Positions 7,906-44,452 of a stretch of 64,000 nucleotides of DNA are shown one piece after another. The stretch comes from Escherichia coli (GTDB lineage Bacteria > Pseudomonadota > Gammaproteobacteria > Enterobacterales > Enterobacteriaceae). The first letter of the stretch is position 1, and each line of letters starts with the position of its first letter. A program made the position numbers and the translations under genes. The DNA lies in assembly GCF_002854065.1 (NCBI RefSeq), contig NZ_CP024147.1; one strand, 5' to 3'. The notes below the pieces were generated by a model. The model made no database searches. It was not told the origin of the DNA and worked only from the letters and a program-made list of their open reading frames with translations.

Positions 7906-8850
7906 ATGAAGCTTAAGAACACCCTCCTGGCGTCGGCACTGCTTTCTGCTACGGCATTCTCCGTTAACGCAGCAACAGAACTGACACCGGAGCAAGCGGC
8001 AGCGGTTAAACCTTTTGACCGTGTAGTGGTTACCGGTCGTTTTAATGCTATTGGCGAAGCGGTGAAAGCCGTTTCTCGTCGCGCAGATAAAGAAGGTGCC
8101 GCCTCTTTTTATGTTGTCGACACTTCTGATTTTGGTAACAGCGGTAACTGGCGTGTGGTCGCTGACCTCTATAAAGCCGATGCTGAAAAAGCAGAAGAAA
8201 CAAGTAATCGCGTAATTAACGGTGTTGTCGAACTGCCGAAAGATCAGGCTGTTCTGATTGAACCGTTTGACACGGTCACCGTCCAGGGCTTCTATCGTAG
8301 CCAGCCAGAAGTCAATGATGCCATCACCAAAGCGGCAAAAGCGAAAGGTGCCTACTCTTTCTACATTGTTCGTCAAATCGATGCCAACCAGGGCGGCAAC
8401 CAGCGTATTACTGCATTCATCTATAAAAAAGATGCTAAGAAACGTATCGTCCAGAGCCCGGATGTGATCCCGGCAGATTCCGAAGCAGGACGTGCAGCTC
8501 TGGCTGCCGGTGGCGAAGCCGCGAAGAAAGTTGAGATCCCGGGTGTTGCGACTACCGCATCACCAAGTTCTGAAGTCGGTCGCTTCTTTGAAACCCAGTC
8601 ATCAAAAGGCGGGCGTTACACCGTCACGCTCCCGGATGGCACTAAAGTCGAAGAACTGAACAAAGCGACCGCAGCGATGATGGTCCCGTTCGACAGCATC
8701 AAATTCTCTGGCAACTACGGCAACATGACCGAAGTCTCCTATCAGGTTGCGAAACGTGCCGCGAAGAAAGGTGCTAAGTATTACCACATCACCCGCCAGT
8801 GGCAGGAACGTGGTAATAACCTGACCGTCAGCGCAGATCTGTATAAATAA
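7906..8850 (+). CDS. ydgH: Periplasmic protein with three tandem DUF1471 (YdgH/BhsA/McbA-like) repeats
   Basis: 314 aa with signal peptide; three internally similar segments of about 90 aa, each ending in an ADLYK-like motif. Confidence 0.9.
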   Translation: MKLKNTLLASALLSATAFSVNAATELTPEQAAAVKPFDRVVVTGRFNAIGEAVKAVSRRADKEGAASFYVVDTSDFGNSGNWRVVADLYKADAEKAEETSNRVINGVVELPKDQAVLIEPFDTVTVQGFYRSQPEVNDAITKAAKAKGAYSFYIVRQIDANQGGNQRITAFIYKKDAKKRIVQSPDVIPADSEAGRAALAAGGEAAKKVEIPGVATTASPSSEVGRFFETQSSKGGRYTVTLPDGTKVEELNKATAAMMVPFDSIKFSGNYGNMTEVSYQVAKRAAKKGAKYYHITRQWQERGNNLTVSADLYK

Positions 8851-41008: not shown

Positions 41009-41704
41009 GTGAGCGAAATTAAAGACGTTATTGTTCAGGGGTTGTGGAAAAACAACTCTGCGCTGGTCCAGTTGCTCGGCCTTTGTCCTCTGTTGGCGGT
41101 CACGTCCACTGCCACTAACGCTCTGGGTTTAGGACTTGCGACTACGCTGGTACTGACGCTGACCAACCTGACCATTTCGACGCTGCGTCACTGGACGCCA
41201 GCCGAGATCCGCATTCCCATTTACGTGATGATCATCGCCTCGGTGGTCAGCGCTGTACAGATGCTGATCAACGCCTACGCCTTTGGCCTGTATCAATCAT
41301 TAGGGATTTTTATTCCGCTGATTGTCACTAACTGTATCGTTGTGGGCCGCGCTGAAGCCTTCGCCGCCAAAAAAGGTCCGGCGCTTTCGGCACTGGACGG
41401 CTTTTCAATTGGTATGGGCGCAACCTGCGCCATGTTCGTGCTGGGTTCACTACGCGAAATTATCGGCAATGGCACATTGTTTGACGGTGCAGATGCGCTG
41501 TTAGGTAGCTGGGCAAAAGTATTACGCGTGGAGATTTTCCACACCGACTCCCCTTTCCTGCTGGCGATGCTGCCACCAGGTGCATTTATTGGCCTGGGAC
41601 TGATGCTGGCAGGAAAATACCTGATTGATGAAAGAATGAAAAAGCGCCGTACTGAAGCAGCTGCCGAACGTGCATTGCCAAACGGTGAAACAGGGAATGT
41701 CTGA
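41009..41704 (+). CDS. rsxE: Rsx/Rnf electron transport complex subunit E
   Basis: 231 aa membrane protein paralogous to RsxA. Confidence 0.95.
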
Positions 41705-42339
41705 TGAACAAAGCAAAACGCCTGGAGATCCTCACTCGCCTGCGTGAGAACAATCCTCATCCCACCACCGAGCTTAATTTCAGTTCGCCTTTTGAATTGC
41801 TGATTGCCGTACTGCTTTCCGCTCAGGCGACCGATGTCAGTGTTAATAAGGCGACGGCGAAACTCTACCCGGTGGCGAATACGCCTGCAGCGATGCTTGA
41901 ACTGGGCGTTGAAGGGGTGAAAACCTATATCAAAACGATTGGGCTTTATAACAGCAAAGCAGAAAATATCATCAAAACCTGCCGTATCTTACTGGAGCAG
42001 CATAATGGCGAGGTTCCGGAAGATCGTGCTGCGCTTGAAGCCCTGCCCGGCGTAGGTCGTAAAACAGCCAACGTCGTATTAAACACTGCATTCGGCTGGC
42101 CGACTATTGCTGTCGACACGCACATTTTCCGCGTTTGTAATCGTACTCAATTTGCGCCGGGGAAAAACGTCGAACAGGTAGAAGAAAAGCTACTGAAAGT
42201 GGTTCCGGCAGAGTTTAAAGTCGACTGCCACCATTGGTTGATCCTGCACGGGCGTTATACCTGCATTGCCCGCAAGCCCCGCTGTGGCTCTTGTATTATT
42301 GAAGATCTTTGTGAATACAAAGAGAAAGTTGACATCTGA
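41704..42339 (+). CDS. nth: Endonuclease III (DNA glycosylase / AP lyase)
   Basis: 211 aa; helix-hairpin-helix and C-terminal 4Fe-4S cluster (Cx6CxxCx5C) motif. Confidence 0.95.
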   Translation: MNKAKRLEILTRLRENNPHPTTELNFSSPFELLIAVLLSAQATDVSVNKATAKLYPVANTPAAMLELGVEGVKTYIKTIGLYNSKAENIIKTCRILLEQHNGEVPEDRAALEALPGVGRKTANVVLNTAFGWPTIAVDTHIFRVCNRTQFAPGKNVEQVEEKLLKVVPAEFKVDCHHWLILHGRYTCIARKPRCGSCIIEDLCEYKEKVDI

Positions 42340-42345
42340 AGAAAA

Positions 42346-42365
42346 GGGGTAACACCGATTACCCC
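42346..42365 (+). terminator. Hairpin (GGGGTAA / TTACCCC) immediately after nth stop; candidate operon terminator
   Basis: 7-bp perfect stem, 6-nt loop, followed by T-rich ATTGATAACCTTTCTTTATCC. Confidence 0.4.
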
Positions 42366-42949
42366 ATTGATAACCTTTCTTTATCCTCTTTTAAAACATC
42401 TTTTTAACGTCAATGATGCCATTGCTTAGCGTTATCATCAGGTAATCCGTTTGCGAATAACCAAAAATGCAGGTTAATTGTTTTTTTAATAGCGAAATTT
42501 TCTATTCATTCGTGATCAAGATCACGATGCTGTGGCAATGTAAAAACATTGCAAGAATCAGGTTAAAATCATTTAAATTTACATACGCAACAAATATTGA
42601 CCTACAAAACATTACACTGGCTATTTTTCAGAAACTGGACTATCTCACTAGGAAAAACGCTAAATAGCAGAACATATCGCCGTCAAGCCATCATCCCCCT
42701 CTCAATGCAGTGAAAAAATCTGCCGTTACGTTTTTTGAAAAATTTAACGCTGGATAACATTTCCCGGAATGGTTGAATTCCCCGCCTCAGTTATATGTAA
42801 CAGATTATTACAAAGGACTTGTCTGAAAGTGCAAGATAGTGAACATTACCTGCCGTTTCCCCTCCCACTATAACAATTGCGCGTATGTTTTTTAGACATA
42901 ACGCGAGAAAGCACCCCCGTTAATATGGGATGTAAAAAAAGAGGTAAAA

Positions 42950-44452
42950 GTGTCCACTGCAAACCAAAAACCAACTGAAAGCGTCAGTTTGAACGCTTTC
43001 AAACAACCGAAGGCGTTCTATCTCATTTTCTCGATTGAGTTATGGGAACGTTTTGGTTATTACGGCCTACAAGGAATTATGGCTGTTTACCTGGTTAAAC
43101 AACTGGGTATGTCTGAAGCGGATTCAATCACCCTTTTCTCTTCCTTTAGTGCCCTGGTTTATGGTCTGGTCGCTATCGGCGGCTGGTTAGGTGACAAGGT
43201 ACTGGGTACTAAACGCGTAATTATGCTTGGCGCTATTGTGCTGGCGATTGGTTATGCTCTGGTTGCCTGGTCTGGTCACGACGCCGGTATCGTTTATATG
43301 GGTATGGCGGCTATTGCGGTCGGTAACGGCCTGTTTAAGGCTAACCCGTCTTCTCTGCTTTCTACATGCTATGAGAAAAACGACCCGCGTCTGGACGGTG
43401 CATTCACCATGTACTACATGTCCGTCAACATCGGCTCTTTCTTCTCTATGATTGCTACGCCGTGGCTGGCCGCGAAATACGGCTGGAGCGTTGCGTTTGC
43501 ATTGAGCGTTGTAGGCCTGCTGATCACTATCGTTAACTTCGCCTTCTGCCAACGCTGGGTTAAACAGTACGGTTCAAAACCAGACTTCGAGCCTATCAAC
43601 TACCGTAACCTGCTGCTGACCATTATTGGTGTTGTGGCACTGATCGCTATCGCCACCTGGCTGCTGCACAATCAGGAAGTTGCGCGTATGGCGCTGGGCG
43701 TTGTTGCCTTTGGTATCGTGGTTATCTTCGGTAAAGAAGCCTTCGCGATGAAAGGTGCTGCGCGTCGTAAAATGATCGTTGCCTTCATCCTGATGCTCGA
43801 AGCCATTATCTTCTTCGTGCTGTACAGCCAGATGCCAACGTCACTGAACTTCTTTGCGATTCGTAACGTTGAACACACCATTCTGGGCCTGGCCGTAGAA
43901 CCTGAGCAGTATCAGGCACTGAACCCGTTCTGGATCATCATTGGTAGCCCGATTCTGGCCGCTATCTATAACAAGATGGGCGATACTCTGCCGATGCCAA
44001 CTAAGTTTGCAATCGGTATGGTGATGTGTTCTGGTGCGTTCCTGATTCTGCCGCTGGGTGCAAAATTCGCGTCTGACGCAGGTATCGTGTCTGTAAGCTG
44101 GCTGGTCGCAAGCTATGGCCTGCAGAGTATCGGGGAACTGATGATCTCTGGTCTGGGTCTGGCAATGGTTGCACAACTCGTTCCGCAGCGTCTGATGGGC
44201 TTCATTATGGGTAGCTGGTTCCTGACCACTGCCGGTGCAAACCTGATTGGTGGTTATGTTGCGGGTATGATGGCTGTGCCGGATAACGTTACCGATCCGC
44301 TGATGTCACTGGAAGTCTATGGTCGCGTATTCTTGCAGATTGGTGTCGCTACTGCCGTTATTGCAGTACTGATGCTGTTTACCGCGCCGAAACTGCACCG
44401 CATGACGCAGGATGACGCTGCTGACAAAGCGGCGAAAGCTGCTGTAGCGTAA
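42950..44452 (+). CDS. dtpA: Proton-dependent di/tripeptide permease (POT family)
   Basis: 500 aa beginning [10 protein letters not shown] from a GTG start with AAGAGG ribosome-binding site; POT-family motifs and about 14 transmembrane segments. Confidence 0.95.

Follow-up and report, generated by a model that had tools for sequence, protein, structure and literature searches.

The AT-rich nth-dtpA spacer of Escherichia coli: a probable cis-regulatory region of dtpA with conserved blocks at fixed spacing

DtpA is the main proton-coupled importer of di- and tripeptides in Escherichia coli, and a model for the human transporters PepT1/2. The promoter of its gene, dtpA (also tppB, or ydgR), is reportedly OmpR-dependent in E. 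coli as well as in Salmonella, according to work attributed to Gibson in 1987 and to Goh, Siino and Igo in 2004. Among described systems, ompF is a close relative in kind: OmpR occupies sites F1-F3 beside the ompF promoter and a distal site, F4, about 360 bp upstream, with looping of the DNA. The malEp-malKp region (controlled by CRP plus MalT) and the csgD-csgB region are further examples, of multi-factor nucleoprotein control regions. Here we describe the spacer between nth and dtpA in a stretch of E. coli DNA of 64,000 nucleotides (contig NZ_CP024147.1), which we refer to throughout as ‘the window’. We conclude, with good confidence, that this spacer is the cis-regulatory region of dtpA, that it houses no separate gene, and that it consists of three parts: a flank next to nth, a central stretch of regulatory DNA, and the dtpA 5' untranslated region (UTR). 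Both the kind of locus and most of its substance are known already; it is an ordinary regulatory region with a moderately interesting architecture.

With the tppB/dtpA promoter of the literature the comparison is one of identity. The locus is the same, and so are the weak, OmpR-activated sigma-70 promoter and the OmpR direct repeat just 5' of the -35 hexamer. The distal 300 bp, the fixed spacing and the UTR hairpins that we describe below were not found in the tppB/dtpA literature, in a search that did not extend to the primary 2004 promoter paper. In layout dtpA comes closest to ompF. Both are controlled by OmpR and have a long upstream region, and dtpA has repeats of response-regulator type beside the -35 and near -100, to which most genera add one near -315; dtpA also resembles ompF in that low OmpR activates it and high OmpR represses it. 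It differs in that the distal repeat of E. coli dtpA has degenerated to an unrelated inverted repeat, in that repression by excess OmpR persists in a fusion without the distal part, and in that a CRP-type site and several blocks have no ompF counterpart; looping at dtpA, moreover, is only a proposal. With malEp-malKp and csgD-csgB, the spacer shares the distribution of several factor sites over hundreds of bp, the remoteness of the CRP site from the start, AT-rich DNA and conservation of length, but it serves a single downstream gene and has no divergent partner.

nth (open reading frame, ORF, 41704-42339) ends at position 42339 of the window and dtpA (ORF 42950-44452) starts with a GTG codon at 42950, leaving 610 bp, 42340-42949, between them. 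In the RefSeq annotation of K-12 MG1655 the gene coordinates are the same after a shift of 1669819, and nothing is annotated between the two genes; the K-12 spacer differs at 8 of the 610 positions, without insertions or deletions (indels). A preliminary description, made from the letters of the window, had singled out this gap as AT-rich, as one of the largest in the window and as containing several A/T tracts. Its coordinates prove exact, and the gap is the largest annotated one of all. The next largest are pntA-ydgH (523 bp, 8085-8607) and ynfM-asr (423 bp, 1134-1556). The GC content is 0.367, compared with 0.51 for the whole window, and is the lowest of any 610-bp stretch in the 64 kb; equally AT-rich stretches of this length make up 0.08% of the total, and every one of them overlaps the nth-dtpA locus. 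Runs of A or T of at least 5 nt number eleven, and with this composition and these tracts the spacer has the AT-richness of H-NS-bound regions. Of the 5426 complete E. coli genomes searched, 5423 carry the spacer, as a single copy, and three lack it; no paralogous copies turned up elsewhere in E. coli. A copy is also found in one plasmid record of E. coli.

Our reading of the spacer as regulatory DNA is supported by its conservation. We compared 80 orthologous loci, one genome per species, from roughly 20 or more genera of Enterobacteriaceae; identity and conservation figures here and below are relative to E. coli, for 24 genus representatives. nth lies upstream of dtpA in all 80 loci. The spacer measures 570-638 bp in 70 of them, 735 bp in one, and about 1060-1185 bp in nine, and the variation in length is almost wholly confined to the first 126 bp after nth (42340-42465), which are practically unalignable. 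From 42466 onward the picture changes: invariant blocks of 6-24 nt alternate with stretches of 0.29-0.36 identity. Positions at least 90% identical to E. coli (163 of 610) are grouped in contiguous blocks, and invariant blocks reach as far as 480 bp from the dtpA start codon in about 20 genera. Identity between the blocks is lower than at the four-fold degenerate sites of dtpA (0.54), and so the inter-block DNA is saturated with substitutions; despite this, the gap fraction over 42604-42790 is 0. With few exceptions among the genera, 380-382 bp separate the anchors CAGGTTAAT and CCGTTTCCCC, and the ~385 bp upstream of the promoter, from 42466, are almost free of indels across about 20 genera. 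An independent test within Escherichia gave the same picture. Where a position is conserved in the other genera, E. coli differs from four further Escherichia lineages 11- to 30-fold less often (odds ratio 0.03-0.09; p no greater than 5e-13). A conservation profile was among the checks that the preliminary description proposed; it reveals strong block conservation and fixed spacing, beyond mere AT-richness. That description had overlooked the strong conservation, the fixed ~385-bp spacing, a near-consensus CRP-type palindrome and a structured 5' UTR of ~96 nt. The features of the spacer are collected in Table 1.

Table 1. Features of the nth-dtpA spacer, in window coordinates; the strand is given where a feature has one
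Feature	Position	Strand	Basis or remark
nth 3' flank, fast-evolving, indel-rich	42340-42465		mean identity 0.31, gap fraction 0.138 (24 genus representatives)
Hairpin GGGGTAACACCGATTACCCC just past the nth stop	42346-42365	+	terminator scan, fold
Distal conserved blocks: CAGGTTAA 42470-77, T7 42481-87, AATTTTCTAT 42496-505	42470-42505		at least 90% conserved in non-Escherichia genera
CRP-type palindrome ttCGTGATCAAGATCACGat, centre 42518.5	42508-42529		read from the sequence; TGTGATCnnGATCAC in other genera
Perfect inverted repeat GCAATG-TAAAAA-CATTGC, Escherichia	42535-42552		alignment
Middle module: ACAAAACATTACAC, ATTTTTCAGA, CTAT(A/C)TCACT, AGCAGAACATATCGCC	42604-42681		identity 0.66, 32% of positions at least 90% conserved, gap fraction 0
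GadX ChIP-exo peak (published), repressor, -151	42691-42711		PMC4918353 supplement; 1710534-1710554 in NC_000913.2
Conserved block GCAGTGAAAAAATCTGC	42707-42723		alignment
Conserved block GAAAAATTTAACGCTGGATAACATTT; minus strand AATGTTATCCAGCGTTAAAT	42737-42762	-	direct repeat of response-regulator type, centre about -102
OmpR site; minus strand TTTGTAATAATCTGTTACAT	42795-42814	-	best match to the OmpR repeat quoted in PMC5438342, 16/20, z 6.7
dtpA promoter: -35 TTGTCT 42819-24, 17-bp spacer, -10 AACATT 42842-47	42819-42847	+	start implied by ChIP-exo, mutation, conservation
dtpA 5' UTR, about 96-98 nt	42852-42949	+	start inferred from ChIP-exo tables
CCUC in invariant CCGUUUCCCCUCC, predicted partner of GAGG 42941-44	42861-42864	+	RNAalifold, single-sequence minimum free energy
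5' UTR hairpin 1, 9 bp, one bulged A	42880-42905	+	covariation
5' UTR hairpin 2, CCCGU/AUGGG, just 5' of the Shine-Dalgarno sequence	42916-42929	+	paired in 98% of cells
Shine-Dalgarno GAGG and dtpA GTG start	42941-42952	+	invariant in 30 genera

The promoter at the downstream end of the conserved region is a weak one. The -35 hexamer matches the consensus at four of six positions and the -10 at three; both lie in invariant runs, and a consensus promoter scan of the spacer did not pick the promoter up, it being too weak. Transcription is implied to start at ~42852-42854 by the tables of OmpR and GadX chromatin immunoprecipitation-exonuclease (ChIP-exo) experiments, once their coordinates are converted (from NC_000913.2 to version 3 by +1976, then to the window by -1669819, the first shift having been worked out with the ompF entry and with an IS5 insertion that is already known). 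The shift of +1976 agrees with the ompF entry of the OmpR table, given ompF coordinates and a 110-nt ompF 5' UTR that we take to be correct. A recurrent A-to-T mutation reported from three cultures in long-term stationary phase (nth +503 / dtpA -108) raises dtpA mRNA ~23-fold. It maps to 42842, the first base of the -10, and changes AACATT to TACATT. This promoter-up mutation shows that the weakness of the promoter keeps dtpA expression low, and that expression is under selection in starvation. Poor hexamers, a scan that misses them, and one base change that raises the mRNA this far are together the marks of a weak core promoter.

OmpR binds immediately upstream. The published ChIP-exo peak (1710621-1710680 in NC_000913.2, or ~42778-42837 in the window) is centred at -46.5 from the start and is classed as activating. 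Inside it, within a 19-nt invariant run, is the repeat at 42795-42814, which is conserved in 24 genera and ends 4 bp before the -35; tandem 10-bp half-sites of the GTTACAnnnnGTTACA type are thus found directly upstream of the -35, the arrangement of OmpR promoters. Occupancy and dependence have been published also from chromatin immunoprecipitation on microarrays (ChIP-chip) and from a PdtpA-lacZ fusion, whose activity is lost in an ompR deletion. A dtpA fusion extending from -201 to +15 is OmpR-dependent; low OmpR activates it and high OmpR represses it, which its authors called reminiscent of ompF. The preliminary description had proposed that nucleoid proteins or response regulators bind this promoter region and had cited OmpR dependence of dtpA; the ChIP-exo peak, which overlaps the best OmpR match in the spacer, the ChIP-chip and the fusions all agree with it on OmpR. 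Binding by GadX, YdcI and CRP has been published as well. The GadX peak sits in a poorly conserved stretch between blocks. YdcI binds upstream of dtpA according to ChIP-exo, reported without coordinates, and is proposed to be an activator; repression by GadX and activation by YdcI would tie the promoter to pH. For CRP, genomic SELEX (systematic evolution of ligands through exponential enrichment) lists tppB among its targets and describes it as new, coordinates being absent.

The CRP-type palindrome lies toward the far end of the conserved region. Among the 70 loci whose spacer is ~570-640 bp long, 51 have it at a fixed position, and it has the TGTGA-N6-TCACA cores of a 22-bp CRP site both in E. 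coli (cGTGATCAAGATCACg) and in the other genera. Where Escherichia has the perfect inverted repeat that follows it, most other genera have a response-regulator-like direct repeat, GATAAC-N4-TGTTA-N6-TGTT(G/A). This matches an OmpR/ArcA-like consensus weakly, and may be a site for a factor of that kind; the Escherichia inverted repeat has the look of a replacement, specific to that lineage, for one conserved site. Neither this inverted repeat nor a pairing between the GCTAT and ATAGC blocks showed compensatory changes. The blocks of the middle module, among them 14 invariant nucleotides, AGCAGAACATATCG, are contiguous, and have no 3-nt periodicity, no conserved ORF and no consensus RNA structure. 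The arms that flank GCAGTGAAAAAATCTGC covary in part only, as a 4-bp stem that is unconvincing as RNA. In the block at 42737-42762, conservation reaches 90% or more at 73% of positions, and among independent matches to the published OmpR 20-mer this block ranks second. It falls inside the -201 to +15 fusion that retains OmpR control, and it may bind OmpR or ArcA. Conserved stretches of note are AGCAGAACATATCGCC, CAGGTTAAT-T7 and ATTTTTCAGA..CTATATCACT, and further invariant blocks are CAGTGAAAAAA and AAATTTAACGCT..ATAACATTT, the latter being the one that on the minus strand gives the second-ranking OmpR-like repeat.

Scans for Lrp, IHF, ArcA, FNR, ArgR, Fis, NarL and Nac employed consensus strings, with scores that are inflated at conserved blocks; they furnished leads only (Lrp-like and response-regulator-like), the single-sequence matches being within chance. 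Three blocks are the best matches to the Lrp consensus, with weak statistics. The best Lrp match of the region, a lead and nothing firmer, is at 42491-505 on the minus strand; GCAGTGAAAAAATCTGC agrees with the same consensus at 12 of 15 positions, and about one match of this quality per region is expected by chance.

How might these elements work together? In our reading the first part, 42340-42465, is a dispensable nth 3' flank with a terminator-like hairpin, and the second, 42466-42851, is protein-binding DNA in the service of one weak sigma-70 promoter. OmpR, at about -50 on the direct repeat that abuts the -35, activates this promoter, as others have shown. The upstream blocks, the repeat at -102 and the CRP-type site at -334 would add further inputs: carbon status, pH (via GadX and YdcI) and, it may be, Lrp or ArcA. 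In such a scheme the CRP-type site and the other blocks would bring in carbon and, probably, amino-acid or oxygen signals. The sites would probably act jointly, as one stereospecific nucleoprotein assembly, and this would account for the intolerance of indels; it is from the joint conservation of distal and proximal parts, together with that intolerance, that we infer their cooperation or looping. In the third part, 42852-42949, the hairpins and the C-rich 5' segment of the UTR would set translation and stability, and this UTR is the target of the small RNA (sRNA) GcvB. Known regulators explain the conserved ~385-bp architecture only in part. Taken to its limit, the scheme would make the ~385-bp indel-free region a single stereospecific nucleoprotein machine, made up of the CRP-type site at -334, the response-regulator repeats and at least five further blocks. 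By looping or wrapping the DNA, this machine would bring signals of carbon, oxygen, amino acids, pH and the envelope together at a single weak promoter, and at least one of its factors would be new to dtpA; otherwise, the region would give rise to a conditional distal transcript. We put this forward as speculation, the balance of probability being against it.

Several observations weigh against giving the distal half so large a role. The CRP-type site is centred ~334 bp upstream of the mapped dtpA start, beyond the ordinary reach of class I or class II activation (-41.5, -61.5, -71.5 etc.), and its effect on dtpA expression is conjectural, being read from sequence and position. At the distances that class I or II would require, neither strand has a conserved -10-like hexamer. 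The -201 to +15 fusion reproduces both activation and repression by OmpR, and so the distal half is unneeded for that behavior. Conservation has no periodicity of 10-11 bp (P about 0.6), such as phasing on one face of the helix might have produced, and a peak at about 33 bp is not significant (P 0.18-0.42). In Kosakonia-type loci, such as L045, ~139 bp are inserted between two of the middle blocks, and some blocks are missing. Finally, most assignments of factors to blocks are tentative, having been made with consensus strings.

The nine long loci are of the Kosakonia/Phytobacter type (L045, L046, L052, L055-L057, L060, L070 and L082). In the three that were inspected, an extra gene lies between nth and dtpA on the minus strand (at 1832-2290 in L045), and the spacer is roughly doubled. 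The product is a membrane protein of 141-152 aa that matches Pfam UPF0093 (HemJ-like; E 6.5e-16).

Could the upstream half act instead through a second, distal promoter of dtpA, dependent on CRP for example, such that 42560-42850 is mostly long leader RNA? The strong palindrome at 42508-29 and the naming of tppB by CRP SELEX are in keeping with this, and so is a -10-like sequence, GTTAAAAT, near 42562-69 that is common to E. coli, Citrobacter and Salmonella; constraint on an RNA, furthermore, could also give fixed spacing. However, the best -10 candidate in 42450-42600 is present in only 38% of genera, and the hexamer TAAAAT, absent outside one clade, would leave CRP out of phase, at around -57.5. 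Over 42464-42809 no pairs are predicted by RNAalifold, and folding z-scores in sliding windows are near 0 on both strands everywhere but at the UTR hairpin. Invariant blocks of 14-19 nt set among random spacers resemble protein sites. On these grounds we consider a distal promoter improbable.

The hairpin next to nth bears on another possibility. It folds with -12.5 kcal/mol on the plus strand and -14.5 on the minus, and the terminator scan flags it on the minus strand only, where GGGGTAATCGGTGTTACCCC is followed by TTTTCTT; the plus strand reads ATTGATAACC downstream of it, with no T run in E. coli. It is probably the terminator of nth/rsx, but would be a poor one of the intrinsic kind because its T-run is on the minus strand only; it could also halt transcription that runs from the spacer into nth. 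In several other genera an inverted repeat of different sequence, likewise able to form a hairpin, can be seen by eye right after nth in the alignment rows that were inspected. A weak hairpin followed by T7 at 42459-87 was considered as a terminator and rejected, its fold being no better than those of shuffled sequences (z -0.55).

The minus-strand signal could mark the end of an sRNA of ~135 nt that starts near 42479 and runs to the hairpin at 42365-42346. The center of the CRP-type site is ~30 bp from that of a minus-strand TATTAA hexamer, which is roughly class II geometry. But such an sRNA would cover the least conserved part of the spacer, 42340-42465, with its identity of 0.31 and many indels; TATTAA is without the final T and varies among genera, and the minus-strand T-run at the nth hairpin is missing in other genera. 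There is no fold signal, and Rfam yields no genuine match either to the spacer at a permissive threshold or to seven orthologous loci at the gathering threshold. Neither gene is named in the supplementary text files that we consulted from a Term-seq study. What we consulted of the supplementary tables of a study that predicts sRNAs from RIL-seq (RNA interaction by ligation and sequencing) has an entry for the dtpA coding sequence only, and none for the nth.dtpA intergenic region. In the spacer as a whole no promoter is paired with a terminator in the manner of an sRNA gene, terminator-like hairpins occurring only at the nth end and in or near dtpA. We therefore share the view of the preliminary description, which saw no convincing sRNA here, and regard a minus-strand one as very unlikely.

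Still less probable is that the spacer is AT-rich filler coated by H-NS, in which nothing but a short promoter at the 3' end has a sequence-specific function. It does have the lowest GC content of the window, and the consensus promoter scans are empty, but the invariant distal blocks, the fixed spacing and the depletion of substitutions within Escherichia already contradict this. As to proteins, the preliminary description had mentioned a 66-aa ORF (42467..42667) as the only one in the spacer and as implausible. It is the only one of at least 60 aa, several ORFs of 25-42 aa being present too, and its implausibility is confirmed: the ATG occurs in 5 of 54 orthologous sequences (that of E. coli included), the first stop falls, in the median, at codon 25, 2 of the 54 remain open, and a Pfam search found no match. 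No frame of the spacer is free of stops across genera. That this ORF, whose start coincides with the onset of conservation, or one of the shorter ORFs encodes a small protein is barely credible given that no start or frame is conserved, that the conserved blocks are contiguous without codon periodicity, and that K-12 RefSeq annotates none here, though the small proteins ydgU and mdtU nearby are annotated.

Returning to the reading of the spacer as the cis-regulatory region of dtpA, its third part, the 5' UTR, is the only part with an RNA-structure signal (minimum free energy -20.6 kcal/mol, z -2.1). Hairpin 1 has compensatory changes in seven of its nine pairs, and its z-score in sliding windows averages -2.5 on the plus strand, with 79% of genera below -1.5; covariation thus supports it as a structured element of a leader RNA. 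For the full structure, of three helices, none of 500 shuffles reaches the observed covariation, and sliding the partners against each other lowers pairing from 89.6% to about 40%. In hairpin 2 pairing is kept despite base changes in Salmonella (UCCCUG...CGGGG and CAGGG) and in Franconibacter. Those same changes remove, in both genera, the ATG at 42925 of a possible upstream ORF (17 codons, to 42978, overlapping the dtpA start out of frame). We rejected this ORF as a candidate, since the loss of its ATG along with compensating changes in the hairpin indicates that RNA structure is what is conserved. The third helix would pair CCUC near the 5' end with the GAGG of the Shine-Dalgarno sequence, making CCUC a possible anti-Shine-Dalgarno element. 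It is paired in 97.5% of cells and none of its pairs has a compensatory change, so covariation neither supports nor refutes the pairing. The dtpA start codon is GTG in 79 of 80 loci. The 24 nt that precede it, with AAAAAAAGAGGTA, are almost invariant. Features of a riboswitch or attenuator were not found: neither UTR hairpin is followed by a run of U, and there is no Rfam match even at E up to 10.

This UTR also invites comparison with the transporter mRNAs that GcvB regulates. GcvB is reported, without coordinates, to act on tppB through its R1 region; tppB is a verified target in Salmonella, conserved in E. coli, and appears in RIL-seq chimeras (PMC9299463). With dppA, oppA and cycA, dtpA shares targeting by R1 and a conserved C/A-rich stretch in the 5' UTR. 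It differs in that the R1 pairing site was not located in the dtpA UTR, the energy of the predicted duplex being no better than with shuffled UTRs. To our knowledge, the GcvB model includes neither the covarying hairpin nor the possible anti-Shine-Dalgarno pairing.

That the spacer is regulatory DNA and hides no gene settles the question with which this analysis began. A modest by-product is a map, at base resolution, of the conserved blocks, the rigid 385-bp spacing, the distant CRP-type site and the covarying hairpin of the UTR. Selection in starving cultures has hit dtpA repeatedly, by way of promoter-up mutations, and the map supplies cheap, concrete targets for dissecting how multiple signals are integrated at a weak promoter.

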